Source: a virus
Reading direction: 5' to 3' (one strand)
IMG/VR virus record: IMGVR_UViG_3300031548_000001
Coordinates: 1-64,000 of that record
Length of the DNA stretch: 64,000 bases
A model generated the notes under the pieces. The model searched no databases. It was not told the DNA's origin and saw only the letters and a program-made list of their open reading frames with translations. The stretch's first letter is position 1. Each line of letters starts with the position of its first letter. Made by a program: the position numbers and the translations under genes. Below are positions 190 through 57,942 of this stretch, piece after piece.

Positions 190-1470
190 ATGCCAACCAA
201 ACGCGAACCAAGAACCGGACCGAATGCGAACCAAGGGTCCATTCGTGGTGTCCGCCTCTTGCCTGAGCGCGTCGGCCGGGAAAATCCCTACGGGGTTCAG
301 TGGCCTGAAAAGGTCTGGAGTGACAAGCAGCAGAAGATGGTTCGGAAGGTGAAGACGCTTTTCTTCCCCACTACCGAGGCTCGCGAAACCAAAGCTGCCG
401 AGCTTCGCGATGCTCGCCGCAGCCGCATGGTCGTCGCCAGTGTCAGCCGCGCCGAGATGGAGGAATACCGCGCCTTCAAGCAGGCCATTGGTAACACTCC
501 ATGGCAGGATGTGGTCGCAGGCTGGAAGAGCCGCCAAATCGAAACCGGCGCGGTTACGTGCAGCCTCACGGTCGAGGCCGCCGCAAAGATCTACGTCGCT
601 CAGGCCGCTGTTCTGCTGAAGAAGGAAAAGATCAGCGGAGGATATTACCGTCACCTTGAGCAGAAAATCGGAGAGCGGTTCGTTGATCAATTTGGTGACC
701 TGACGCTCGATAAGGTGACCACCGCCGACATCGTCACGTGGATCGATGACTTCGACGAGGTGCAGAGCGACGACACCTTCGACAACTACAAGAAGCACGT
801 CCGCGCCTTTTACTCCTACTTCCTTAACCAAGAACGTCCGGTCATTCGCGACAATCCCGCGGCCCGCATCAAGAATCGGAGCGACGGCATCGGCGAGGTG
901 AAGATCATCAGCGTAGCCCAGACGGCCCAGCTTTTCTGGACGGCACTGAACTACGTCGACGCGAACGGCGTGAAGAAGTTTCTCCCGGCGATAGGACGAC
1001 TGGCCATGGAAGCATTCATTGGCCTTCGGTTCGCGTCCGGTTGCCGCCTGGCCAAAGAGGACATCAACCGAGAGGATAAAGGCGTAACGCTTCCCAAAAA
1101 AAAGCTGAAGACCAAGCGCCGACATTACATCGATGGACTGCCCGAAAACGTATGGTCGTGGGTGGACATCACGCCCGACGAATGCTGGGACCTGACGCCG
1201 CGCCAATACCTGAGTCTGAAGAGCGAGCTTTTCACGGTCGCCCGTGTTCCCCATCCGCAGAACTGCCTCCGTCATGGCTTCGCAACCTACCATGTTGCGG
1301 CGCATAAAGACGGGGGGAAGACTGCTTACATTCTGTGTCATCGTGACCAAGATGAACTATACGAGCATTACAAGGGGAACGCGACTGAGGCGCAGGGTAA
1401 ATTGTATCAGACGATTACGCCTGAGACGGTGGAGTTGATCCGGCAGGGCGCGGTGCTGGTGCCGGTGTGA
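190..1470 (+). CDS. int: Tyrosine recombinase / phage integrase
   Basis: GLR, LRHGFATYH, CH and HY catalytic-type motifs; adjacent to the tRNA; start uncertain. Confidence 0.9.
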   Translation: MPTKREPRTGPNANQGSIRGVRLLPERVGRENPYGVQWPEKVWSDKQQKMVRKVKTLFFPTTEARETKAAELRDARRSRMVVASVSRAEMEEYRAFKQAIGNTPWQDVVAGWKSRQIETGAVTCSLTVEAAAKIYVAQAAVLLKKEKISGGYYRHLEQKIGERFVDQFGDLTLDKVTTADIVTWIDDFDEVQSDDTFDNYKKHVRAFYSYFLNQERPVIRDNPAARIKNRSDGIGEVKIISVAQTAQLFWTALNYVDANGVKKFLPAIGRLAMEAFIGLRFASGCRLAKEDINREDKGVTLPKKKLKTKRRHYIDGLPENVWSWVDITPDECWDLTPRQYLSLKSELFTVARVPHPQNCLRHGFATYHVAAHKDGGKTAYILCHRDQDELYEHYKGNATEAQGKLYQTITPETVELIRQGAVLVPV

Positions 1471-2286: not shown

Positions 2287-2769
2287 TCAAGTTATGGCCT
2301 TTTTACTTTCAAATGGCTGCTGAAGAATGCTTTTTATTTCCAACCACCGGTCGCGTTCAGCTGGTGTCTGGTCAACATTGGCCGCTTCTACCTCGGCAAA
2401 GAACACAGCTTTTTTTAACGCCTCGCGCATGGATGGCGCCATGTGGATCAGGTGTGCAGCATCTATCCACTCATCTTCTGAGAGCAGCTTTTCCTTTTCA
2501 CTTTTGCTCGCTGACTTTCCAAGTAGTCGAACAACAACGCCGACGGTGCATTCGCCACGGGCCAAGAATGCAGTTTGTGGCCCCAGGTCGTCGATTCGAT
2601 CAAACGAATGCCTGCCCGTCCGGCTCATTAAGTGGCCGGTATGGTTGTAGGGGTAGGTTTTTTTACAAAAGACACAATCATCGTCATGCCACGTATTAAC
2701 GTGAATAGACGACAATCCTACTGCGCATTTATTGCTTTTTACTAGCCGAACAAACCCGATTTTTAACAA
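2287..2769 (-). CDS. Hypothetical phage protein
   Basis: Low-GC ORF; AHLIHMAPSMREAL resembles the common phage ARLIAAAPELL motif; start uncertain. Confidence 0.5.
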   Translation of the reverse strand: MLKIGFVRLVKSNKCAVGLSSIHVNTWHDDDCVFCKKTYPYNHTGHLMSRTGRHSFDRIDDLGPQTAFLARGECTVGVVVRLLGKSASKSEKEKLLSEDEWIDAAHLIHMAPSMREALKKAVFFAEVEAANVDQTPAERDRWLEIKSILQQPFESKKAIT

Positions 2770-35213: not shown

Positions 35214-38200
35214 TCAGCCCAGACCGGTGATTTTGTGGATATTACGCTGCATCATGTTCACCAAATGGGTTTCGCCTTCTTGGCTATTTGCCCATTGCTG
35301 CGGGGTCATACCGGACGGAATCATCCCGATAGTAATCTTGGCGCCGTCCACATGCACCGGGGACGCAGATGCTGCCGAAGTAACCGGCGACATGGACGCC
35401 GCGTTTTTCATCACCGGGAACCCGCCGTTGCCAACTCGTAGGTTTTCGACGGCTTGCACGCCGCCCAAACGCCGCACATCGGCCTGAGAGAAAACCACCT
35501 CACCACGGTGAACCACGCCGGCGGGTTCATTCACGCCACCGGCCCCCGTGTAGCCGCCTTCGCTGAAACCACCTGAGAGTGATGCAATCAAAGCGAGGGC
35601 TGCGATACCGCCCGCGAGGGCAAGGCCCCACGAGCTGATGCCACTGGCCACAGCACCTGCAGTTTTAACAGGCAGTGCAGAAGCCTCGTTGGCGATGACA
35701 TTGGCCGTCTCTTCTTTGTGCCAAGCAATACTTGCGAGGCCCATGGCAGCACGCTTCACGATCCACGTGGCGAACATGTCGGAGATGGCTCCTATGACGC
35801 TGTTGAGGATCGTGCTCCCGATGTTTTGCAGCGCATCGCCCCATGTCATCGTCCCGTTGATCAGACCTTGGATGCTGGAGCTGAGTCCTTGGAACACTCC
35901 CTGAAATGAGGTTTCAACGCCGCGTGCGACGATGTCGGCCTCGGTGCCGAACCGATCAATGGTGTTGATTACGCCTGCCTGGACACCGTCACCAGCACCC
36001 AACGGCGTCGACTTTGTGATTGTTAGGCTATTGGCGCTTCGTTCTGCGCGAAGGCGGTCGATATTGGCCTGACGTGCCGGATCTGGGCTTAGTTTTTCCG
36101 CCTCTTCCAGCAGTCGGATTCGTTTTGAGATCTCCTCATTTTGAGCCTTGAGAAGGGCAACGAGCAGACGGTTCTTCTCCTCACTCGTGAGAAGCCGGTC
36201 AGCGTTCACGAGAGCGATCTGCTCTTGGCTGGCAGCTATTTTCCGTGAAAGCGCCTGCTCTTCTTCGGCGGCAGCATTCTTTTTCCGCGTGTTGATCAGT
36301 TCAACCTCGTCCTGAATCTGACGCTCGATGGCGGCCTCGTTTTCCTTATTCGCAGCCAGCTCTGCCTTTTTGATGTCAGCAATCTGGTTCTCCAACTCCA
36401 TCTTCTGAATCGTGAGCTCGCGCTCGCGTTGAGAAAAAGCGATGAAGGCATCACGGATCTCTTGGGGCGTGGAAGCGCCCGCGGTATTAAACGGCTGGGC
36501 GATTTGGGAGTTAACACCATTCAGCTTCCCCTGCAGGTAATCTAATTTGGCCTTAGAAGTAGGCAGGTTCTCTACGTAGAGTTTCTGGAACTTATTTTCG
36601 TTCGCCGACGTCGCTGCTTCCTTCGTTGCGAGTGCGACACGGCGAGCGATCTCAGACTTTTGCTTTTCGAGTTCCGCAGTCTGCTTCTTGAGCGTATCGA
36701 GGCGATCATCCTCGAGGAGGTTGTTCGCGACAATGGCAGCGCCACGGTCATCGATCAGCTTGATGATGGAGTTGAGCCGGTCGATCTGCTGCTTGGCGAT
36801 ACGTCCCTCTTCGGTGTCCGTCGTCGGGTTTCCACGGCGGTCACGATTCTTCGGGATTGCCGCATAGGCCTTCTCGGCCGCAGCAAGCTGAACCAGCGCC
36901 GCGCTACGGGCACGGGCAGCCTCCTCAGAGCTCCTCATTTCACCGGCCTGTTTAATCAAGCTCGCGTTGATCCGGCCGTTCGTGCCTTCCAACTCGAGCT
37001 GAGCATCACGCATCTCGCCGTAGGCTTCGATCGCTCCGGTGATACGCTGTCCGATGATAACCGTCGCCGCTGCCATGGCGCCCACCGTGGCTGTGAAGGC
37101 CGATGCCGCCACCACTGCCGCCGGCACAGTCGCCGCGAAGACTGCCAGGCCAGCAACAGAACCAGCGAGACCGGCGATGAACACGCCAAACGCCACGGCC
37201 TCGAGTGCCTTGCCCATGTCGCGAACGGCCTGCGGATTGTCGCGGGCGAAATCCGACATGTCTCGGATCAGTTCGGTGAGGCCCTTGATCGTGTCGGAGA
37301 ACTCGTCCGCAAAACCCGCATCGTTAATCGTGTTCTTCAGGTCGAACAGCGATTTATCGAGACGGTTCAATTCTGCCTGAAGCGTCTGTGCGGCTTGTGG
37401 AACAAGACCACCAAACTGCTTTTGCAGTTCGGCGCCCAGCTTAGGCAGCAGGTCACGAGAGAGGACTTGACCCTGCTCAAGCATCTTGCCGAGTTGCTGG
37501 GTGCTGACACCCATAGCCCTTGCCGAGAGCTCAAACGCACCGGGAAGACGCTCACCCAACTGACCGCGCAACTCTTCGGCCGCTACCGTGCCCTTCGATA
37601 GCATCTGGGAAAGTGCGCGAAACACACCTTCCATTTCGTCCGCCTTGAGACTCATCACCGCTCCGGCCTCGCTGAACTGGGTGAAGATCTCGCGAGTTTG
37701 ATCAGCCGCCAAGCCAGACACGCTCGCAGCGATCGAGAAAGAGGTGAAAGGCTTGAGAACGCCGTTCATGCTCAAGCCGAGGCGATCCGCCTCACCAGCC
37801 ACGTAGCCGTAGGAATCGCCGGCAGCCTGGGCGGAACCCTGTGACGCAAGCAGGCCCATCTTTACGCGCTGCATCTCCAGTTCGGCATCAACCAGCGCTT
37901 GCCCCATGCGCACGGCGGCGAGCGTAACCGCCGATGACATGACTGCCTGCAGTCCAGTGAAGGCCAGTGCAGCCGAGTTGGCTGAAGACGCCTGATCCTT
38001 CTGGGCGTTCGTGTTCGTCTTGGCCGTGGTCGCCGCCTGTTGCTGAGCATCGGACAACTTAACGAGGCCAGTCGTCGCCGATGCCAGGTGTCCACGGAGT
38101 CGCTCCACCTCTGCCGACAGTCGCCGCTGTTCCGCCTGCAATCCGGCAATAGAGTTCTTCGATCCCTCGAACTGAAGCGCCATCTTGGCGTTTTCAGCAG

Positions 38201-38489
38201 CGAGCTTTGCCTGAGTTTGCGTCAGCGTCGCATTCTCCGCAGAAAGCTTCGTGACCGCAGCGGAGGCCGCAGTGGTCATCGTGCGTAGCTTGCTCAACTC
38301 CGCATTGAGCAACTGGAGGTCCTTCGAGTGCCCCTCCGTAGCCGCACGCAACGCAGCACCAAGTGCATCAGCCTCATTGGCTGACTTCTTCGCCGATTCT
38401 CCCATCAGCTTGAACTGAGAGAGGACGTTTTTCAGGACCTCGAGGTCGGCCTGAATACTCAGCAGCAGTTGAATCTTCTCTTGGTCCAC
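35214..38489 (-). CDS. Tape measure protein
   Basis: ALSQMLSKGTVAAEELRGQLGERLPGA and FSEGGYTG...PAGVVHRGEVV; start GTG 38489 inferred from the promoter (ATG 38501 is the alternative). Confidence 0.93.
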   Translation of the reverse strand: MDQEKIQLLLSIQADLEVLKNVLSQFKLMGESAKKSANEADALGAALRAATEGHSKDLQLLNAELSKLRTMTTAASAAVTKLSAENATLTQTQAKLAAENAKMALQFEGSKNSIAGLQAEQRRLSAEVERLRGHLASATTGLVKLSDAQQQAATTAKTNTNAQKDQASSANSAALAFTGLQAVMSSAVTLAAVRMGQALVDAELEMQRVKMGLLASQGSAQAAGDSYGYVAGEADRLGLSMNGVLKPFTSFSIAASVSGLAADQTREIFTQFSEAGAVMSLKADEMEGVFRALSQMLSKGTVAAEELRGQLGERLPGAFELSARAMGVSTQQLGKMLEQGQVLSRDLLPKLGAELQKQFGGLVPQAAQTLQAELNRLDKSLFDLKNTINDAGFADEFSDTIKGLTELIRDMSDFARDNPQAVRDMGKALEAVAFGVFIAGLAGSVAGLAVFAATVPAAVVAASAFTATVGAMAAATVIIGQRITGAIEAYGEMRDAQLELEGTNGRINASLIKQAGEMRSSEEAARARSAALVQLAAAEKAYAAIPKNRDRRGNPTTDTEEGRIAKQQIDRLNSIIKLIDDRGAAIVANNLLEDDRLDTLKKQTAELEKQKSEIARRVALATKEAATSANENKFQKLYVENLPTSKAKLDYLQGKLNGVNSQIAQPFNTAGASTPQEIRDAFIAFSQRERELTIQKMELENQIADIKKAELAANKENEAAIERQIQDEVELINTRKKNAAAEEEQALSRKIAASQEQIALVNADRLLTSEEKNRLLVALLKAQNEEISKRIRLLEEAEKLSPDPARQANIDRLRAERSANSLTITKSTPLGAGDGVQAGVINTIDRFGTEADIVARGVETSFQGVFQGLSSSIQGLINGTMTWGDALQNIGSTILNSVIGAISDMFATWIVKRAAMGLASIAWHKEETANVIANEASALPVKTAGAVASGISSWGLALAGGIAALALIASLSGGFSEGGYTGAGGVNEPAGVVHRGEVVFSQADVRRLGGVQAVENLRVGNGGFPVMKNAASMSPVTSAASASPVHVDGAKITIGMIPSGMTPQQWANSQEGETHLVNMMQRNIHKITGLG

Positions 38490-38539
38490 GGTGACATGCA
38501 TGGCCCCTTGCGGGGCCGGTCAAATTTTAGGCCGAAAAA

Positions 38540-38947: not shown

Positions 38948-39234
38948 GGTTCTAACCTCGGCTCGTTAAAAAGTCTTCCGAGGCGATCGATTTCGTAGCA
39001 GGCGTCATCCGACAGCGTATCCACGAACGCGGCATCTTTGCCGGTCACGAATTGAATGAAGTCCGGCAGCGACGACACGACGTCGAGATACTTGCTGAGC
39101 TCACGAATAGGAACCAAACGGACTTTGACCTCAATGTCTTCGCCCTTGTGGTTCTTCACCGTTATGGTTTGGCCGAGGTTCATAAGAACGTCGGCAGGGA
39201 TTGTGGCCTTATCGGCCTGTGCTTCGGGTTTCAT
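38848..39234 (-). CDS. Tail assembly chaperone (G-like)
   Basis: Lies between tail tube and tape measure; contains the slippery heptamer. Confidence 0.8.
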   Translation of the reverse strand: MKPEAQADKATIPADVLMNLGQTITVKNHKGEDIEVKVRLVPIRELSKYLDVVSSLPDFIQFVTGKDAAFVDTLSDDACYEIDRLGRLFNEPRLEPFLARQRELLNRVAEITTNVRKAIASAISSQTQ

Positions 39235-42449: not shown

Positions 42450-42949
42450 TTGATGAGTTTCTCCAAAAAGGATTTCACTTGGTTTTTAAGAATCTCCATG
42501 GCTCGAGGCCTGAACTTTTCGACGATGTGCATGGCCTTGATACCGCGGACACGGCGGGCGAGGTAGTAGTCCCGGCCGAACTTGAGCGCCGCATTCCAGC
42601 CACCGATCGCAGCGCGAGAGTTGAGCGGCACGAAGAGGTATTTTTTCGACTTCGGATAGATGTAGCCGCCGTGGCTCGTAGCCGTGCCCGCATTGCCGGT
42701 GCCGTGCTCAAGCCAATTCATCGCCTTCGAGTTGTTGAACACCAGGCGCTGGGCGATTCCGGTTTTCTCAACTTTCCACTCACGCCGAGTGATGCCTGTA
42801 TATCGTTTTGGCGTCAGTTCGACGAGCTCGCGGTAAACCTTCCAGCCGGCGATTTCCACCGGTTGATCAAACGCCTCGTCACGGAGCGCATTGAGCATGA
42901 CGCCGATCTTCTGTTCGGCGTCACCGGTGCTGAAATCGGTCGAGAACAT
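42446..42949 (-). CDS. HK97 gp10-like neck protein
   Basis: TPKRYTG...W and WLEHGTG motifs. Confidence 0.7.
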   Translation of the reverse strand: MFSTDFSTGDAEQKIGVMLNALRDEAFDQPVEIAGWKVYRELVELTPKRYTGITRREWKVEKTGIAQRLVFNNSKAMNWLEHGTGNAGTATSHGGYIYPKSKKYLFVPLNSRAAIGGWNAALKFGRDYYLARRVRGIKAMHIVEKFRPRAMEILKNQVKSFLEKLIK

Positions 42950-43581
42950 CAGATCACCTGCATGCGGTAGCGGTTGAGTGATCCGGTCAGGTCAGGCGGC
43001 AGATTACGCACTGTCGCCACTTGGCGAGAGCCATCAGCCGCAACGAACTCGCGCTTCACCAAGCCGCTGCGGATCGCCGCCAACACACGGCAGACGGTGC
43101 CCACTTCCTGAGGCAGATCCGTGCACGGCACCGCCAAGGGCGTCGTGGTCGCTGGCGTGAAACCAAACACACCCGTGAGCTCGATACGTGGGGGCAAGGC
43201 AAACGTGCGATTGGATCCGAAATAGGCCTGCTGTTTCTGCCAGCGACCGATCCGGATGATCTTGGCTGTCGACCGCGGCACGCTGTTTTCAAACGTGTAT
43301 TGATCGGTCGCCAGCTCCACACCGTCCACCGTGATCTTCGTGAGCGTCCGCACCGGCATCGGCAGATAGATTACGTTTTCCGCGCACCAGCCAGAAAGCA
43401 CCGACAAAGGAGACGAAGCGTGATCATGAGCGAGGAAGTCGCGGCGGCAGTAGTCATCAATCCATCGGCTCGCCCAGTTGATCTCGCTCTGTAGATCTGC
43501 GACAGAGTCCGGAGTGTCGTTGCGGGTCTCGGTCTGCACCTCTTTGAGCGTGCAGTAGGGATTGAGGAGCGTGGTGCTCAT
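42949..43581 (-). CDS. Head-tail adaptor
   Basis: YCTLKEV, ASRWIDDYCRRDF, GVFGF, LNRYR. Confidence 0.8.
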   Translation of the reverse strand: MSTTLLNPYCTLKEVQTETRNDTPDSVADLQSEINWASRWIDDYCRRDFLAHDHASSPLSVLSGWCAENVIYLPMPVRTLTKITVDGVELATDQYTFENSVPRSTAKIIRIGRWQKQQAYFGSNRTFALPPRIELTGVFGFTPATTTPLAVPCTDLPQEVGTVCRVLAAIRSGLVKREFVAADGSRQVATVRNLPPDLTGSLNRYRMQVI

Positions 43582-43799
43582 GCGGTGTTGATGGTGATTG
43601 CGGATTTATTCTGCATCGCAGCGCGGCATGAGGGCAGGTGAGCTGCGCGATATTTCTTCATCTCTTCATCGAAATCGCGCACGACCGCGGCACGGCCCGC
43701 GCTGTTTGCGACGTTCAGGCGGCGGATAAGCAGGTCGCGTGTGGGGTTATCGAGAGGTGAGTCTTCGATCTGTTTTGCGAGTTTTTCTGGGCTGGACAT
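43578..43799 (-). CDS. Hypothetical protein
   Basis: MSSPEK...; ATGA-coupled to the adaptor; leader upstream. Confidence 0.6.
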   Translation of the reverse strand: MSSPEKLAKQIEDSPLDNPTRDLLIRRLNVANSAGRAAVVRDFDEEMKKYRAAHLPSCRAAMQNKSAITINTA

Positions 43800-43845
43800 G
43801 GCTTCATTTCGTTTCGGGTTCGGGTGTGCTCGGACGCTGACAAAC

Positions 43846-43875
43846 AAAAAAGGGGCTCCTTGGTGTGGAGCCCCT
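43846..43875 (-). terminator. Intrinsic terminator
   Basis: AGGGGCTCC/GGAGCCCCT stem plus T tract. Confidence 0.8.
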
Positions 43876-43884
43876 GCGTGAAAG

Positions 43885-44097
43885 TTATTCGTTGCCACCA
43901 GGGTTGGTGTCGTCGGCATCGGCTGGCACTTTATCGCCAGGCTTGGACGCCTTATCCTTGACCGGCTTGAACTGCTCGGGGGCGTGCTTTAACAAGCCTT
44001 CGCCCTGCTTTTCGGTGACCTCGATCACATCGCCATTTTTGACGATGCCGACGCCAGCCAGATTCTGCTCCTCTTTACCAACGTAACGGAATTTCAT
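43885..44097 (-). CDS. Small head-associated protein
   Basis: MKFRYVG...GDVIEV; typical small gene after a capsid gene. Confidence 0.7.
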   Translation of the reverse strand: MKFRYVGKEEQNLAGVGIVKNGDVIEVTEKQGEGLLKHAPEQFKPVKDKASKPGDKVPADADDTNPGGNE

Positions 44098-44193
44098 TTC
44101 AGGTTTTGTTTCGGGTTTCTGCGACTGCCAGTGAATCCGGCAGCACTCGTTCTGTATCCAAATTTCAAATATCGATTGAGCAGCCCTATAGTC

Positions 44194-44258
44194 AAGAGAA
44201 ACCCGGCCCCCTTCAGGCCGGGTTTCATACCCTGAAATGAACTGATCTATCCCGACGC
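44194..44258 (-). ncRNA. Candidate small RNA antisense to the start-associated leader
   Basis: Lies between TTGACG-15-CAACACG and an 11-bp hairpin (44198-44226); contains AGTTCATTTCAGGGT. Confidence 0.45.
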
Positions 44259-44302
44259 GATTACGTGTTGAGGCAAAAACGAGTTCGTCAATCTATTCGC
44301 AC

Positions 44303-44336
44303 AAAAAAGGCCCGGACCAATGACGGCCCGGGCCTT
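44303..44336 (-). terminator. Terminator after the major capsid gene
   Basis: AAGGCCCGGG/TCCGGGCCTT stem plus T tract. Confidence 0.85.
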
Positions 44337-44359
44337 CGAATCACTCAACTACCGGCTCT

Positions 44360-45940
44360 TTAGCTCGCGTAGTTGTAGCCGAGAACGGCCGCCTTGGTGT
44401 TGGCGAGCGACTCGATGGGCTTGAAGGCGCGGCGGAATGAACCAACCACGAACTTCTGCTGGAGGCTGATGTCCTTGTCCTGCTCGATCATGAAGCCGCG
44501 GCGGACGCCCATGATCCAAGCGGGCTTATAGACGATGAAGATCGAACCCTTGGTGGTGGTCACGCCGTCGTAAACACCGGAGGCGTTGAGGTCTTCACGG
44601 ACGGCAGCCGAGGCGAGGATGTCCATGCCGAAGAGGTTCGGCGCGAGACCGGTGAAGATGCGGGCCGTAGCCTTGTCGCCAGCCTTCTCGGCGGTGAGGG
44701 TTTCGGGCAGCATCACGAGGTCGTTGTAGGCATTGACGCCGGCAACGATCATCAGGTTCTTCGGGTTGAGGCCCCAACGCTTGAGCGCCTTGCGGAGCAC
44801 GCCGATGTTGCTCGCGGACAAGCCGCCAGTGGCCAGCGAGATCTTCAGGTCAGCCTGAGCGAGAGCCAGCTTGCGGATACCGTCGAACAGCTTCGCTTGG
44901 TGGCGAGCCACGGCATGGATGTCCGAGTCTTGGTGCGTCGCGGCGGTGTCACCGTTGATAACAGCGTTTTCGAGCGCTTCGGCGGCAGCCTCACCCAGCT
45001 GGGAGAGGATGTTCGGGAGAATCGCGATGAGCGAATCTTCGTCGGCCTCGTAGCTGTATTTGACCTTGCCGATGAGCTTCTTCGCCTGGAGGACCAGGTC
45101 ATCGGTGCCGGGATCGCTCTCGTCAGGGGTGCCACCCTCGGAACCGGTGTAGAACGTCGGACGGGAGGTGGACAGCGGGTAGGTGTAGTTGTCCGAAGGC
45201 ATCTGGACCTCGTTCGCCGTAAGGGCGGCGGCGAGTTGGGACTCCAGATACATGCGGGCGAGGAGCGTGCTGGACAGGGTGGTGTTCATCCACTCGGCAC
45301 CAGTGCTGGCTCCGGTCGTGGTGATCGCCTTCTGGGCGTTCACGCCACCAACGCGCAGACGGCCGACGATGCTCTTGACGCGTGCTTCGCCACGGCGCTC
45401 GGCATCCTTCAGGACGGAATCCTGAATGCCTTCGTTGATGAAGTCGGCGCCCTTCGTCATGACGTTGAGCAGCTGCTTGGCGTCCACCGACAAGTTACCG
45501 GCGCGGTGAGCGATCGGGAACTCGATGGAGGTGTCATCGTTGTCCTGATGCTGTATCTTGGAGTCCTTGCGGAAACCCTTCAGGGCCTCTGTGACGATGC
45601 CCTTGACGTCATCGGACGTGATGGTGGCAGGCATGGCAGCTTTGACCTTCTGTGCGAGGGCATCGGCATCGAGGTTCTCGGGCTTGATGCCCTTGACGGC
45701 GTCGGCGACGATGGTCTTCACCTGTGCTTCGGTGAGGGTGTTGCCGGCGGGGAGAGCGGCCTTAACGGCGTCCTCGACGGTCTTCTTGACGTCCTCGGCG
45801 CTCATGCCGTCGTCATCTTTGACGGCGTTGGCTTTGGCTTGGAGAGCGTTGAGCTCCTTGATTTCGTCGGCGGTGCGATCGGCGACGGCTTTGCTCATGA
45901 GTTCCATGAGGCGTTTAAGTTCTGCGGCGGTGAGTTTCAT
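44360..45940 (-). CDS. Major capsid protein (HK97 fold, N-terminal scaffold domain)
   Basis: Coiled-coil N-terminus, EGGTP, AKKL, ENAVINGD, PNLFGMDI; follows the protease. Confidence 0.92.
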   Translation of the reverse strand: MKLTAAELKRLMELMSKAVADRTADEIKELNALQAKANAVKDDDGMSAEDVKKTVEDAVKAALPAGNTLTEAQVKTIVADAVKGIKPENLDADALAQKVKAAMPATITSDDVKGIVTEALKGFRKDSKIQHQDNDDTSIEFPIAHRAGNLSVDAKQLLNVMTKGADFINEGIQDSVLKDAERRGEARVKSIVGRLRVGGVNAQKAITTTGASTGAEWMNTTLSSTLLARMYLESQLAAALTANEVQMPSDNYTYPLSTSRPTFYTGSEGGTPDESDPGTDDLVLQAKKLIGKVKYSYEADEDSLIAILPNILSQLGEAAAEALENAVINGDTAATHQDSDIHAVARHQAKLFDGIRKLALAQADLKISLATGGLSASNIGVLRKALKRWGLNPKNLMIVAGVNAYNDLVMLPETLTAEKAGDKATARIFTGLAPNLFGMDILASAAVREDLNASGVYDGVTTTKGSIFIVYKPAWIMGVRRGFMIEQDKDISLQQKFVVGSFRRAFKPIESLANTKAAVLGYNYAS

Positions 45941-46042: not shown

Positions 46043-46951
46043 TCACTCGGTCTTGAGGCTCGTCTGGTTGCGCCAGAACTTCGCGAAGGCCTTCCGGCAG
46101 TCGGCCACGCCGAGGCTGCTGGTATAGGCGAGCGAGTCCGGGTTCATCGGCACAGGCGTGAGGCTGATCTCGTATAGCTCGGCTTCCTCGATGCCGTAGC
46201 CGTCGTCCTTGTAATACCAGATGCCGCCAATGCTCAGGCCCTTCAGGTGGCCCTCCATGAGCTTGAAGCGAACATCGCGCAGGCCGGGCGCGTTCGAGAT
46301 GGCGCCACGCACAGCCAAGCCTGACTTGTCGGTGCCGATCTTCTCCCACGAGCCGGCGAGGTGATCGACGGCGTTGCGGTGGTCGATCAGGATGACCGGG
46401 TTCTTCTTGAACGCGGCCAAAGTCTTGTCGAAGGCGCCCGGCAGCACGTAGTCGCCGCCGCGGTCGCGCTCGGTCGTTCCGACGAACGTGGAGGCATAGC
46501 CCTCGATGATGACGTCACGGTAATCGACGATGCGCGTGGCCTTGTCGTCGCCAGGCACAGGCTCGGTGACGGCCACGGCCTTCTTGTCGCCATCGGTCGC
46601 GAGCTTAATCTCTGCGCCGATCTCGAAGTTGCGCACGCGCTTCGCCTGCATGAGCGCCTTGGTGACTTCGAGGTCCGTGGCCTTCACGGTTATCTCGGTG
46701 TCGGTTACGAGCAGCACTCCCTCGCGGGATGGAACCGCCAGCTGAATGACGAGCGAGTCGCCCTCTACGCGAAGAGCCTTGCCGGCGACGCGCTCGCCCT
46801 CGGAGGCGAAGAACACAGCCTTACCGAGCAGCTCCTTGTGAGCATCAGTCTTAACGATTGCCGGAGCCGGGGGCGCGACTCGCTTCTGGCCTACGCGAAG
46901 AACTTTTGCGGGGGCGAGAGGAGTGCGTTTGACCTTGAGGATTGCCGGCAT
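46043..46951 (-). CDS. HK97-family prohead protease
   Basis: IEGYAS, DRGGDYVLPGAF, LIDH, GLSIGG, LYEISLTPVPMNP. Confidence 0.95.
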   Translation of the reverse strand: MPAILKVKRTPLAPAKVLRVGQKRVAPPAPAIVKTDAHKELLGKAVFFASEGERVAGKALRVEGDSLVIQLAVPSREGVLLVTDTEITVKATDLEVTKALMQAKRVRNFEIGAEIKLATDGDKKAVAVTEPVPGDDKATRIVDYRDVIIEGYASTFVGTTERDRGGDYVLPGAFDKTLAAFKKNPVILIDHRNAVDHLAGSWEKIGTDKSGLAVRGAISNAPGLRDVRFKLMEGHLKGLSIGGIWYYKDDGYGIEEAELYEISLTPVPMNPDSLAYTSSLGVADCRKAFAKFWRNQTSLKTE

Positions 46952-46997
46952 GCATCTCGTGTCGAAATGCGGACGGGCTCTGTCAAATTTGACGCAT

Positions 46998-53087: not shown

Positions 53088-53522
53088 TCAGTTGAAAGCC
53101 GCATCGTCGCCCGGCGTGTTGGGCATCGTCCGAGGCATGACCGACAGGTCCACTTTGGCGCCAAAATCCATGTAGAGGTTCCAAGCACGCCGCCCGTGCG
53201 GCTTGATGCATGCTCCGTCCGCATCATGAGGTTCTCTGCCAGGGCGGGCATTCTCCGCATCGACGATCTGCTTCACGAAATCAGGGTTATCCGGGAACTG
53301 GCGGCGTGTGATGCCCTCGTAGTCGCAGGCCCCGATGTGTTTCATGAGCGCGTCCTTCAACTCGATAGGGCCCACCGCTTCGTCAGTCCATGGGATCGCC
53401 ACAAGGTCGAGGTCAGACGTAACCGTGCCGTGCATGGCGAGCGCGTAACCGTGTTTGCGGGCGACGACGCAAAGTCCGTGGTAGAGGCAGGCGTAGAAGG
53501 GAGCGCGTGTCGGGTCTTTCAC
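53088..53522 (-). CDS. Conserved phage protein (nucleotidyltransferase-like HG..DLDL motif)
   Basis: GYALAMHGTVTSDLDLVAIPW, KPHGRRAW, VDLSVMP. Confidence 0.7.
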   Translation of the reverse strand: MKDPTRAPFYACLYHGLCVVARKHGYALAMHGTVTSDLDLVAIPWTDEAVGPIELKDALMKHIGACDYEGITRRQFPDNPDFVKQIVDAENARPGREPHDADGACIKPHGRRAWNLYMDFGAKVDLSVMPRTMPNTPGDDAAFN

Positions 53523-53611
53523 TCAACGTCCTCCGGTGGGTGCATCGGGCCGGTGTCTTTCCAAACGATCACAAGCACTGCAATTATGGCGATGATAGCG
53601 ACAGTCTTCAT
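53519..53611 (-). CDS. 30-aa membrane peptide
   Basis: MKTVAIIAIIAVLVIVWKD... behind a leader. Confidence 0.6.
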   Translation of the reverse strand: MKTVAIIAIIAVLVIVWKDTGPMHPPEDVE

Positions 53612-53680
53612 TTCGTTTCGGGTATCTGCCCCCACGAATGACGCAGCGTCGATGTCGTCAAACTCTACGCATGAAAAAGG

Positions 53681-55034: not shown

Positions 55035-56414
55035 TCAGGCCGCCTCCGGCTCTTCCTTCGGCTTGCGCTCAGGCACGGAGTCATCCGTCGGCACTTCAGC
55101 CAGGCCGGCCATCTCCAGCGGGATGTAATCCTTCTTGATCATGTATTGATCGAGCATCGGGTTGTTCTCGCGGGCGAGGCCACCGAGTTCGCGCAGCTGA
55201 TTGCCGGTCAGGCCGCCGCGGTCGAACAGCGGACCGTAGTCCTTCATGACCTGCTCGACATCGATCAGGCCGGTGAGGGGGAAGTCCAGCTTCAGGTTCT
55301 CGTGGAACGCAGGGATCAGGCCATGCGGCGAATTGAGCTTGTCGGTTATGAGATTCACCATCGGCAGGCACTTATGCTTGCGGTGATTCATTTCCTCGAC
55401 ACGGGCCGTTGCAAAGTTCGCGGATCCGAAGCCGGCGACGGATAGCGGCACGCCGTGGTTCAGGAAAATGTGCTCGATGTTCACCTTCTCCTTTTCCATC
55501 TCCTGCATTTCGGCCGCAGTGATACCCATCTGGAGCAGCGACCACTTACCGTTCATCCATGCGATCTTGCCGGCGTTTTTCACGCCGCCGTAGTTCTGCT
55601 GGAACGCAGCCTTTGTCTTCTGCCAATCCTCATCGGAGCCATCCCACTCCTCGCGAACAAGGATACCCGACGGAACAGCGCCGTTTGCCATGAAGCGCGT
55701 CTTGTAGAGCGACCGGTTGATGAAGTCCTCGTAGAGGGACTCGCCTTGCTCGATGGAGCCTAGGCCCCAGAGCGGGTTATTGGCGTGCGGGCGCTTGAAG
55801 TGGATGATCTCGTCTGGCGTGAAATTGATTTCGGTTCCGTTCACCGAGTAGGTGTATTTCGCCACCTTGGCATTGCGATCTGGCGTGATCTGCATGCACC
55901 GCGGATTCAACCAGTAGATATTGTTCGGCTGACCCAAGCCGTTCATCTCGTCCTTAAACCAGAATCCGCTGCCAGTGAACTCCAAGTGGGCCACGAGCAG
56001 ATACAGCATCTCCGAAATGGTATCGTGGGGGTTAGGATTGGCCAGCAGGCGCACGAGCTCGGGATCTGCCTTGATCGCCTTCTTCTTCTTTTTGGCCTCG
56101 GCGTCACGGTGGGCCAGCTTCATGTCGGTCGAGATGACGACATTGGCCGTGATGTCCACGGCGCGAGCCGCTGCCCAGACGCGCTTGGTTCCAGCATCCA
56201 AGAAAGAGGAGTATCCAGAAAACTGATGCGTGCGGATGCCAGGCACGACGTCGGCGAAGCCGCCACCGCTGAACAGGTCTATACCGTCTTCATCAGCATT
56301 GATGCCGGAGAGGCGCTTCTGGTCGTTGCTACGCAGGGCCAGAGTGAGGTCGCTTCGGCTCTTGATGACCGCGGCGGCCTTGGCTGTGGGTGTTCCGTAG
56401 ATGCGTGGCGTCAT
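55035..56414 (-). CDS. HK97-family portal protein
   Basis: LLANPNPH, EIIHFK, WGLG, NGAVPSGIL, NAGK, GVP; start uncertain (56414 or 56435). Confidence 0.95.
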   Translation of the reverse strand: MTPRIYGTPTAKAAAVIKSRSDLTLALRSNDQKRLSGINADEDGIDLFSGGGFADVVPGIRTHQFSGYSSFLDAGTKRVWAAARAVDITANVVISTDMKLAHRDAEAKKKKKAIKADPELVRLLANPNPHDTISEMLYLLVAHLEFTGSGFWFKDEMNGLGQPNNIYWLNPRCMQITPDRNAKVAKYTYSVNGTEINFTPDEIIHFKRPHANNPLWGLGSIEQGESLYEDFINRSLYKTRFMANGAVPSGILVREEWDGSDEDWQKTKAAFQQNYGGVKNAGKIAWMNGKWSLLQMGITAAEMQEMEKEKVNIEHIFLNHGVPLSVAGFGSANFATARVEEMNHRKHKCLPMVNLITDKLNSPHGLIPAFHENLKLDFPLTGLIDVEQVMKDYGPLFDRGGLTGNQLRELGGLARENNPMLDQYMIKKDYIPLEMAGLAEVPTDDSVPERKPKEEPEAA

Positions 56415-56487
56415 GTGGTCCGATAGTTTTACCAATGGAGACGAAGGGCTACTCGTCCAGAAATGGGTGTGAAAAAGTTGCGCATGG

Positions 56488-57942
56488 TCATGCGAGGAGC
56501 AGGCGATGCTGGCCTGCGAGCATTTCCCAGAGCACAGTCACAGCGTCGATTTGGTCGTCATGTGCGCCGTCCGGGAACTGCTCAAGCTCATCAAGGAAGT
56601 CTTGATTCCACTCACCTTCGACCATGAAGAATTTACCGCCGTCGATCTTGGCTATCCACGGCAGCGCACGGACGAGCTTGTCCGATGTCGGCGTGTAGCT
56701 GGTGACAATGACGCGGCCCTTGTAGTGCGTTCGGATGTCCGTTGCTGCCACTTCCCAGGCACCGACGGCCTCGATACCTACTCGTTTACCGATCGCCTCG
56801 CGCTCGATGTATTTGAAGAGCGTCGCCTTTTGCTCAGGCCACAAGCGCCTCGCTCGGTCCATGTGCACGAGGTAAAAGTTTCCATCCTTGTCCATGCACC
56901 CGTAGGCACCGGCTGAGTAGTCGCTCAGGTTCGTCTTGGATACAGCCAAGTCCCAGCCGCGCACCATCTCGCGTCCGGTCGGCACCTTTGAGCGAGGTAT
57001 TGTGACGATCTTCTTGATGTCGGTGATCGCGCCGCCCGGCGGGTTGGGCCTCTGCTGGTAGAGCGCGTTCCACTCGTAGCTTCCGATCTGTATTTTTTGA
57101 GCACCGAGCCACTTTTCATCGCGAACCTCGGGCCAGAGGGCTTGGCCTATCTTGCGCCCCATCTCGTCCGTGTCTGGGTTCTCGCACAACGCTTCGAGGC
57201 TGAGCACCTCGAAGTTCACGTCATCGAAACCGGCCTCCTTTAACGCGGCGACACGCTTGGGATCTTGGAGACGGCCAGCCAAGTCATCTTTGTGCCAGCG
57301 CGTCTGGATCACGATGACGATGCCGTCGGGAGCCAAACGGGTCATGGCGGTGGACGTGAACCACTCCCACACCTTATCGCGTTGCGTCTGTGAATTCGCC
57401 TCGGCGCGATCCTTATGCGGGTCGTCGATCAGCAGGATGTCGGCAGGCATACCTGTGCCGCCACCCACCGACGTTGCGAAGTAGTGCCCACCCAAGCGTG
57501 TCTGCCAGTAGTCCTCGCGGTTGACGCGTGGATTGATGAGCTCAGGGAAGAACTGCTTGTAGCGTTCGCTCTGGACGAGGACGCGAGCCTCACGCGAAAA
57601 GCCAGTCGAGAGCGTGGCCGTGTGCCCGGCCTGCATGATACGCAGTGTCGGGAACACCGTGAGCGCCCACGCCGCGAAAATGATCGATGCCAGGCGCGAC
57701 TTACCGTGCTGCGGTGGCACGTTGATGATGAGCCGGCGAATGCCTCGACTGAGGCACTTCATTAGCTTGCGGGCGAGCAGACGGTGAAACTTCGCCGCTA
57801 CCCATCCGGGATAAAACGCCTCGCCAAAGGTAGCCAGCGACTTCAAGCACGCCGCACGCGTGACCTTGGCCAGCCCCTTCAGTGGCAGCGGTTCAAGTTG
57901 GGTCCGGCGTGCTGGTAGCTTCGGCTGGACGGTCTTTGTCAT
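56488..57942 (-). CDS. terL: Terminase large subunit
   Basis: PPQHGKS, LIDDPHK, QTRWHKDDL, LYQQRP, WDLA, HDDQIDA. Confidence 0.96.
   Translation of the reverse strand: MTKTVQPKLPARRTQLEPLPLKGLAKVTRAACLKSLATFGEAFYPGWVAAKFHRLLARKLMKCLSRGIRRLIINVPPQHGKSRLASIIFAAWALTVFPTLRIMQAGHTATLSTGFSREARVLVQSERYKQFFPELINPRVNREDYWQTRLGGHYFATSVGGGTGMPADILLIDDPHKDRAEANSQTQRDKVWEWFTSTAMTRLAPDGIVIVIQTRWHKDDLAGRLQDPKRVAALKEAGFDDVNFEVLSLEALCENPDTDEMGRKIGQALWPEVRDEKWLGAQKIQIGSYEWNALYQQRPNPPGGAITDIKKIVTIPRSKVPTGREMVRGWDLAVSKTNLSDYSAGAYGCMDKDGNFYLVHMDRARRLWPEQKATLFKYIEREAIGKRVGIEAVGAWEVAATDIRTHYKGRVIVTSYTPTSDKLVRALPWIAKIDGGKFFMVEGEWNQDFLDELEQFPDGAHDDQIDAVTVLWEMLAGQHRLLLA

Follow-up and report, generated by a model that had tools for sequence, protein, structure and literature searches.

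A promoter-to-hairpin unit between the capsid gene and p70

We analysed a 64,000-nucleotide stretch of viral DNA (IMG/VR record IMGVR_UViG_3300031548_000001, positions 1 to 64,000; hereafter the window), which is the first part of a 95,020-bp provirus record, and within it a short element that may encode a small RNA complementary to the starts of the phage's own genes. The minus strand carries nearly all genes of the provirus and is here also called the sense strand. On this strand, the element lies between the gene for the major capsid protein and that for p70, a conserved 70-amino-acid protein. Read from the capsid side, it consists of a TTGACGA promoter-like box behind the capsid terminator (T1), a predicted transcription start region, a stretch that mirrors the leader and AUG of many genes of this phage (the anti-start stretch), and a GC-rich hairpin (T2) followed by an interrupted U-tract (Table 1). 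We refer to this arrangement as the unit. An earlier sequence-only reading of this DNA had described the promoter-type box, the stretch, the hairpin and a series of pairings with particular gene starts, and all of these were present where it had placed them. The plus strand at the stretch reads ATG AAC TGA (44237-44245), also as claimed.

The TTGACGA box recurs behind a T-run at three sense-strand sites, 53661, 44291 and 40087. Downstream of the boxes at 53661 and 40087, an AGA-ACCCGAA leader and then an ATG follow at 28-34 nt. In the unit, position 44256 lies 30 nt past TTGACG, and the GATAGA sequence there resembles GATAGAGACCC, the start region behind the 40087 box. Restart promoters of this kind, composed of a T-run, approximately TGCG, and TTGAC(G/A)A, were seen after terminators in the structural module only, and TTTGACA variants of the post-terminator box lie at 46987 and 58974 on the minus strand. 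The promoter at 53661 precedes a strongly hydrophobic open reading frame (ORF) of 30 amino acids (MKTVAIIAIIAVLVIVW...; 53519-53611, minus strand) that has a canonical leader.

Between the box and hairpin T2 lie about 60 nt of sequence, and T2 has a predicted fold of -28.3 kcal/mol (z = -4.0). Together with UUUCUCUU it could possibly serve as a leaky intrinsic terminator; a simple terminator scan did not flag it. Past the U-tract is a second sigma-70-like promoter match, which may be due to chance because it is not conserved in relatives, and a small hairpin lies between this match and the p70 leader and ATG (44097). A cmscan search of 43000-45500 against Rfam (E up to 5) returned seven weak, chance-level matches, and no family fits the unit. 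The accessibility of the pairing seed would depend on the 5' end of the RNA, with about 88% predicted to be unpaired if transcription began near 44250 and 24-55% if it began at 44254.

Table 1. Features in and around the unit, with positions in the window
Feature	Position	Strand	Basis or remark
Terminase	56488-57942		siphovirus-type late module
Portal	55035-56435		siphovirus-type late module
Prohead protease	46043-46951		siphovirus-type late module
Major capsid protein, HK97 fold	44360-45940	-	matches to PHROG 10 (major head protein) and Pfam PF05065; directly upstream of the unit
Capsid terminator T1, imperfect GC hairpin (GGCCCGGGCC...GGUCCGGGCC) then UUUUUU	44301-44334	-	read from sequence
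TTGACGA box, -35-like, recurring promoter class	44285-44291	-	sequence and alignment
Predicted transcription start region GUCGGGAUAGA	44246-44256	-	inferred from spacing
Anti-start stretch AGUUCAUUUCAGGGU	44229-44243	-	mirror of leader plus AUG
Predicted pairing segment of the candidate RNA, UUCAUUUC
Hairpin T2, 12 bp (GAAACCCGGCCU / GGGCCGGGUUUC, loop GAAGG)	44198-44226	-
Interrupted U-tract UUUCUCUU	44194-44201	-	behind T2; read from sequence
Second sigma-70-like match, TTGACT, 16 nt, GATATT	44168-44195	-	9/12 consensus positions
Reversed module: TTCAAA-17-TATAGT, AGAAACCCG, hairpin, ACCCUGAAAUGAAC UGA	44164-44245	+
p70 start region (CCUGAAAUGAA + AUUCCG)	44087-44103	-	predicted cis partner of the anti-start stretch
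p70, 70-aa conserved protein	43885-44097	-	downstream of the capsid gene; weak DUF7210 match
Head-tail adaptor	42949-43581		siphovirus-type late module
Tape measure	35214-38501		siphovirus-type late module

The shared start tag and its mirror

The sequence-only reading had proposed that many genes of this phage share a leader directly before the start codon, and strand counts bear this out. CCCGAA occurs 113 times on the minus strand versus 9 times on the plus strand, and CGAAATGA 31 times versus 0. We collected 37 starts that read (CCCGAA-like repeats)-GAAAUGAA. The leader motif ACCCGAAATGAA (for the tag here, also ACCCGAAAUGAA) is C/A-rich, has no Shine-Dalgarno core, and is found in early-type and structural modules alike. 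Since many leaders open with GUCAGA(C/G)ACCCGAA at 28-30 nt behind a conserved CCTCTTTACTTTAA box or a TTGAC box, the AGA of this opening probably marks the start of the transcript.

The CCTCTTTACTTTAA box defines a second promoter class, placed 28-30 nt before GTCAGA(C/G)ACCCGAA at no fewer than six gene starts on the minus strand. Starts of this class lie at 5663-26727 of the window (for example, upstream of 26727, 19251 and 5663) and at 70443-89809 of the genome. We found no conserved -10 element between the box and the leader opening in those starts, and the geometry suggests an activator-type or alternative-sigma -35 element.

The leader is a feature of the phage and not of its host. In a 5.3-Mb Opitutus-type metagenome-assembled genome (MAG; G001), all 20 copies of CCCGAACCCGAA are confined to five contigs (C51, C71, C100, C133 and C26). 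Three of the four contigs inspected, C51, C71 and the capsid contig C100, carry a strand-biased leader system, and the fourth, C133, is unbiased (2 vs 2). Because CCCGAACCCGAA is limited to these five contigs, an RNA that mirrors the leader would act on phage genes. The G001 phage has its own form of the start tag, CACCCGAA-N-AUGA, and its sense-strand promoter box is TTCATTTTCCTCTTTACGT. We also considered whether the leader might pair with 16S rRNA, with the unit imitating the rRNA, and rejected this, as a 16S rRNA from the same order has a normal anti-Shine-Dalgarno end. No anti-leader-like stretch was found in that 16S rRNA gene except for a UUCG tetraloop.

The anti-start stretch is the reverse complement of this tag, start codon included. 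It matches the 26727 start ACCCGAAAUGAACU over 10+4 bp with one bulged A, the 15188 start over 13 bp, and CCUGAAAUGAA (44103-44093) over 11 perfect bp. Its plus-strand form, GAAATGAA, is present on that strand as a single copy at 44234. From positions -12 to +6 of the 37 start regions we derived a position weight matrix (PWM) and scored the whole 95 kb with it, and the reverse complement of the stretch ranked first on the plus strand, with 15.7 bits against 11.9 for the next site. It remained first when p70 was left out of the matrix. The single copy and the top rank uphold the claim that this is the only reversed leader-plus-ATG in the genome.

In a seed test, perfect complements of at least 8 nt link the stretch to 26 of the 37 starts, compared with a mean of 2.95 for shuffled sequences (p = 0.023), and complements of at least 10 nt link it to six starts (p = 0.0075). 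When every 30-nt window of the sense strand is ranked by this test, the mirror site comes second in the genome. The top-ranked window, at genome 66364-66393 (minus strand), reaches 30/37 starts via TTTCGGGTG; it mirrors the CACCCGAAA of the leader and leaves the AUG uncovered. Apart from the stretch, the sense-strand complement of greatest length to a start region is a perfect 13-nt match, AATCGGGTTTGTT, at 2749-2761 (minus strand), to the leader at 39234.

Recurrence in related phages

For comparison, we used four relatives that have both the leader system and sequence beyond the 3' end of the capsid gene (L029, L030, L031, and L077, which includes L002), with capsid identities of 58-63%. Scans with the capsid and p70 proteins found the leader system only in L002/L077, L003, L029, L030 and L031. 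No further prophage was found in 401 genomes of the order to which G001 belongs, and two DNA-pattern scans of viral contigs gave only chance-level matches besides L030 and L031.

All five aligned units have the TTGACGA box unchanged, approximately 10 nt past a terminator with its T-run. In all four relatives, about 30 nt past the box, a poorly conserved segment of 60-110 nt begins, with a strong GC hairpin at its end, and the stem core CCCGGCC/GGCCGGG is common to the window, L031 and L077. No conserved ORF covers the unit on either strand. Judged from these alignments, the promoter-like box and hairpin form a real element, conserved in position between the capsid gene and p70.

Two of the relatives have additions of their own at this locus. 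In L030 (about 1340-1790), the capsid terminator and the TTGACGA unit are separated by a small additional gene that has a CTCTTTAC box and a terminator of its own; it looks like a moron-type insertion. In L031, two GTGTTC-N4-GAACAC palindromes flank the unit, one in the spacer of the TTGACGA promoter (1481-1496) and one just past the hairpin (approximately 1598-1613). These look like operator sites for a dimeric regulator; no similar palindrome was seen in the window.

The mirror itself recurs in part of this set. Scored with the window PWM, the top antisense-strand match lies inside the homologous unit both in L031 (ACCTGATCGGAAATGAAA, 17.1 bits; 4.4-kb locus) and in L077 (AAGCCACCCGGAATGAGA, 8.3 bits; 9.4-kb locus). 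Over the roughly 88 kb of contigs of the G001 phage, the unit holds the sole antisense match to CCCG.A.{0,3}ATGA, versus 16 matches on the sense strand, and its site ranks fifth with the window's matrix. A PWM built from the G001 phage's own starts is blurred by variable spacing, and the unit is not rankable with it. The G001 mirror, UCAUUCCGGGUGG, fits that phage's own tag variant, extra C included. The mean duplex energy of the G001 unit against 42 starts was -18.2, versus -15.0±1.5 for shuffles, a marginal difference (p = 0.03). The sequence-only reading had suggested looking for co-variation of the RNA and the leader in related phages; among these four, a number too small for judging co-variation, the units of L031 and L077/G001 contain a reversed tag, and those of L030 and L029 show no clear one.

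Taking unit length over locus length times rank, we estimated a rough combined chance of about 0.01 over the four relatives. This recurrence is the strongest evidence for the mirror that the sequences offer, and the relatives carry the most weight because the window's own site had been picked post hoc. The seed test and the reversed tag in the units of two relatives are our grounds for placing the mirror above chance; within the window's genome alone, the case is weak. We consider the start-tag mirror to be probably functional.

A number of results weigh against this view. Within the genome, the sense strand has a single TTCATTTC, close to the expected number, and six sense-strand loci hold perfect complements of at least 11 nt to any of the 37 start regions, where a uniform expectation would give more. 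Inverted repeats of 11 nt with a spacer of 40-260 nt are present at 11 genome loci. When the 30-nt 5' part was paired with the 37 starts by RNAduplex, the mean energy was -17.2, versus -15.0±1.7 for dinucleotide shuffles (p = 0.10), and the best target did not stand out from the shuffles either (p = 0.16). Composition explains much of the pairing, as a G/U-rich stretch pairs with a C/A-rich leader whatever its order. Pairing with many targets, as originally proposed, has support from the 8-nt seed test and not from duplex energies in this phage.

The relatives add further points of this kind. Conservation rests on the four relatives described above, and in L030 and L029 the PWM found no clear mirror of the leader and AUG; the starts of these two phages have no fixed tag beside the ATG. 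There is no conserved -10 element across the five units. A U-tract stands behind the hairpin in the window and in L077 (UUUUCGUG) only, and since the units of L031, L030 and L029 are without one, a discrete short RNA is not assured. In L031, the CAU part of the mirror lies 19-29 nt past TTGACG, over the expected -10 or start region, and therefore possibly is not transcribed from that promoter.

These counts, the nonsignificant duplex energies and the absence of the mirror in two of the four relatives would all fit a locus at which pairing has no function: an ordinary restart promoter and a stabilising or attenuating hairpin, with the mirror arising by chance or left over from an inverted gene start. 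The reversed sequence does read as a complete gene start, which might mark a rearrangement scar. However, a relic would not be expected to last at 58-63% capsid identity, and the mirror recurs within a unit of about 130 nt in L031 and L077/G001 although the rest of that unit has diverged. The seed test (p = 0.02-0.008; second genome-wide) also speaks against pure chance. We regard the absence of any pairing function as doubtful, but as an explanation to be taken seriously.

Two further explanations make other use of the same DNA. The first is a small gene or leader peptide encoded by a 44-aa ORF (44228-44094, minus strand), on which ribosomes could open the hairpin and couple translation to p70. 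This ORF begins with ATGAAA, its ATG lies about 20 nt past the predicted transcription start, as in real genes of this phage, and its TGA overlaps the p70 ATG (ATGA); the hydrophobic 30-aa ORF at 53519-53611 is likewise preceded by a TTGACGA promoter. However, L031, L030 and L077 have no ATG-started counterpart at the same place, and the ORF has no family match. Its coding score of -0.001 per codon falls between coding and non-coding sequence and below 97% of in-frame windows, with a GC content at third codon positions of 0.55 versus 0.73. It would also have to span both the conserved hairpin and the p70 leader. We find a peptide-coding role here scarcely credible.

The second assigns the function to the plus strand, as the source of an antisense transcript that bears either a two-codon minigene or a decoy start tag; this transcript could titrate whatever recognises the leader, or extend antisense into the capsid gene's 3' end. 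Behind a sigma-70-like match (TTCAAA-17-TATAGT, 44164-44192), the plus strand carries its sole AGA[ACG]ACCCG (44197) and its sole GAAATGAA (44234), 37 nt apart and in gene-start order, and the mirror site is the best start-region PWM match of that strand. Neither the promoter match nor the start-site motif was seen in relatives, however, and the palindromic hairpin dictates the AAACCCGG portion of this motif. Reading frames that open at the reversed ATG run for 2, 34 and at least 42 codons and differ in frame, so there is no conserved protein, and the conserved TTGACGA box faces the opposite way. Plus-strand function therefore seems highly improbable to us.

The relatives also bear on the host and on the setting of the unit. 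The closest capsid relatives are 58-73% identical, and P0002-P0012 span 57-73% (P0002, 73%). The source names one capsid relative as coming from an Opitutaceae MAG, and locus L077 lies within an "uncultured Opitutus sp." MAG, so the host is probably a member of the Verrucomicrobiota. Homologues of p70 follow the capsid gene in L029, L030, L031 and L077 and also in the more distant L015 and L058. A nucleotide search of GenBank phages gave no match. ARAGORN predicted a tRNA gene (Ala, anticodon GGC) at 14-89 of the window, and a near-repeat of about 29 nt of its 3' part lies at genome ~94,880-94,910, at the opposite end of the record (window side, 14-117). Such a partial tRNA repeat at both ends is the signature of an integrated prophage, and we take the pair to be its attachment-site repeats. 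An ORF of integrase size, assigned on size alone, adjoins the tRNA gene at 190-1470 (plus strand).

A candidate anti-start RNA and its relation to known systems

We favour the reading that the unit encodes an RNA directed against start codons, and we put its probability at roughly 0.4; the reading covers both an action in cis and one on many mRNAs. It builds on what was observed directly, namely the anatomy of the sequence, the recurring promoter box, the conserved hairpin and the reversed tag in two relatives, and from these we infer a transcript, its ends, its timing, the repression and the number of mRNAs reached. Transcription would begin about 30 nt past the TTGACGA box and yield a minus-strand RNA, either a free RNA of about 55-60 nt that ends at the hairpin or the 5' part of a transcript into p70. 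The single-stranded 5' region of this RNA would mirror the phage's leader and AUG tag, and its GUUCAUUUCAGGGU would pair across the AUG of leader-bearing mRNAs, blocking ribosome access.

The strongest predicted partners are the four CCUGAAAUGAA starts, which are those of p70 (127 nt downstream), 83526, 77151 and 89451. For ACCC-GAAAUGAAC starts, the predicted pairing comprises 8-10 bp, a bulged A and 4 more bp. The best predicted partner in trans is the 83526 start, with 17 bp and one bulge. This site (genome 83509-83526, minus strand; L079; CCUGAAAUGAAACUGAUC) is the start of a 130-aa gene of unknown function, which adjoins a gene for a KH-domain (KhpA/B-type) protein at 84260-83664. We considered whether the stretch is a relic of an inverted duplication of the 83526 gene start and rejected this, as the similarity ends at 17/18 nt.

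The same unit could instead work on p70 alone. The TTGACGA box would then restart transcription for p70 and the head-completion genes, with the stretch as the 5' arm that closes an approximately 160-nt 5' untranslated region over the p70 leader and AUG. Such an arm would tune p70 translation alone or protect the 5' end, with no role in trans, and the element would be a more ordinary leader structure. The sequence-only reading had named pairing in cis with the 44097 start as its alternative, and the longest pairing of the stretch is indeed with p70, where UUCAUUUCAGG pairs with CCUGAAAUGAA (44103-44093) and CGGGAU with AUUCCG (44092-44087). These 17 bp (11+6), with a 7-nt bulge, form in the minimum free energy (MFE) fold of 44254-44070 (185 nt; -66.3 kcal/mol, z = -4.7), and the number of expected pairs is 16.8, versus 6.6±4.2 with a shuffled 5' part (p = 0.027). 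The CAGG of the stretch matches the rarer CCUG variant, found at 4/37 starts including p70. In 5/5 phages, the unit is located upstream of p70 and shares its orientation, and the second promoter match between them is not conserved. The RNA would continue into p70 in the three units that have no U-tract.

The relatives do not bear out a conserved cis helix. Each of them has a long-range helix in its MFE fold, yet in L031, L030 and L077 this helix does not exceed what a shuffled 5' part forms (p = 0.87, 0.89 and 0.65), and on this control we rejected the conserved helix. In a matrix of swapped pairs, the cognate pair was best for the window and L031 only, and in L031 and L077 the fit of the mirror to the general tag is no worse than its fit to the p70 start of the phage itself. 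Inverted repeats of this length and distance are also not rare in the genome, as described above. We hold an action on p70 alone to be unlikely.

At the other extreme, the anti-start RNA might be a master RNA of about 55-60 nt that masks the ACCC-GAAAUGAA tag on some 26-31 of the phage's own start codons together, as a genome-wide translation switch. If made in a lysogen, such an RNA could confer immunity, both against the phage itself and against incoming relatives with the same tag. We think it improbable that the RNA reaches this far. The specific proposal of a global late switch likewise strikes us as a long way from probable. It had assumed mostly early targets, which our pairings do not support: the late starts at 53611, 43799, 39234 and p70 (44097) pair well, and those of the capsid gene, 41240, 40016 and 58878 pair weakly. 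An action on early genes only is not supported, because the late structural starts are not systematically spared.

Several phage RNAs act at translation starts. P22 sar on ant and lambda OOP on cII are short, hairpin-ended RNAs that pair at or near the start of translation and lower expression. Both are transcribed opposite a single target to which they are fully complementary. Unlike sar and OOP, the unit described here is on the strand of its predicted targets, and its complementarity to each is limited to 8-17 bp.

The c4 RNA of the P1/P7 immI operon and the CI RNA of P4 are closer in layout, as they lie upstream of their targets in the same orientation and carry short complements to the ribosome-binding region. 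c4 is cut from a longer transcript, serves one operon for immunity, and could act in cis or in trans. Like these RNAs, the candidate RNA would be phage-encoded and in the same orientation as its nearest target, p70, whose leader and AUG, 127 nt downstream, it matches by an 11+6 bp complement. The Rfam C4 covariance model had no match in 43000-45500 (E up to 5); thus, the likeness to c4 is one of proposed mechanism and not of family membership. c4 has been described as a trans-acting RNA that represses Ant synthesis, with a processed antisense RNA of 77 bases cited (PMC8546580). Unlike c4, the stretch here mirrors a tag common to about 37 genes and sits in a late structural module.

Multi-target seed small RNAs (sRNAs) of bacteria and prophages are treated in a review (PMC12197685). 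The candidate RNA would resemble such sRNAs in layout, with a predicted unpaired seed of about 8-11 nt ahead of a terminator-like hairpin, by which one RNA could reach many start regions. Known prophage sRNAs act mostly on host mRNAs, at unrelated sites, whereas the predicted seed here reads the phage's own tag.

The closest parallel to the tag itself is in the Cluster K mycobacteriophages. Their start-associated sequences (SAS) are phage-specific, asymmetric repeats that stand just before many ATGs in one orientation (Pope et al. 2011, PMC3203893). Several Cluster K genomes also have a single reversed SAS copy away from gene starts, and that study does not decide between an RNA and a protein as the binder of SAS (PMC3203893). 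The sequence-only reading had called a shared leader with an antisense RNA an undescribed system. This needs some qualification, since start-associated sequences with a single reversed copy had already been published; an antisense RNA was not proposed for SAS in that study (PMC3203893). The leader described here is likewise a phage-specific, asymmetric repeat in one orientation, before 37 starts. However, SAS has a Shine-Dalgarno core (GGGATAGGAGCCC) and occurs at non-structural genes only (PMC3203893). The leader ACCCGAAATGAA is unrelated to GGGATAGGAGCCC and has no homology to it, so the likeness is by analogy only.

Phage start tags have thus been known since Cluster K, and the reader of the tags and the reversed copy stayed unexplained. 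Here, an unrelated phage has the same pattern with a different tag, and its single reversed copy lies inside a conserved promoter-to-hairpin unit. If the anti-start reading is correct, one small transcript could set the translation of dozens of phage genes, and the reversed copies in other phages would gain an explanation.

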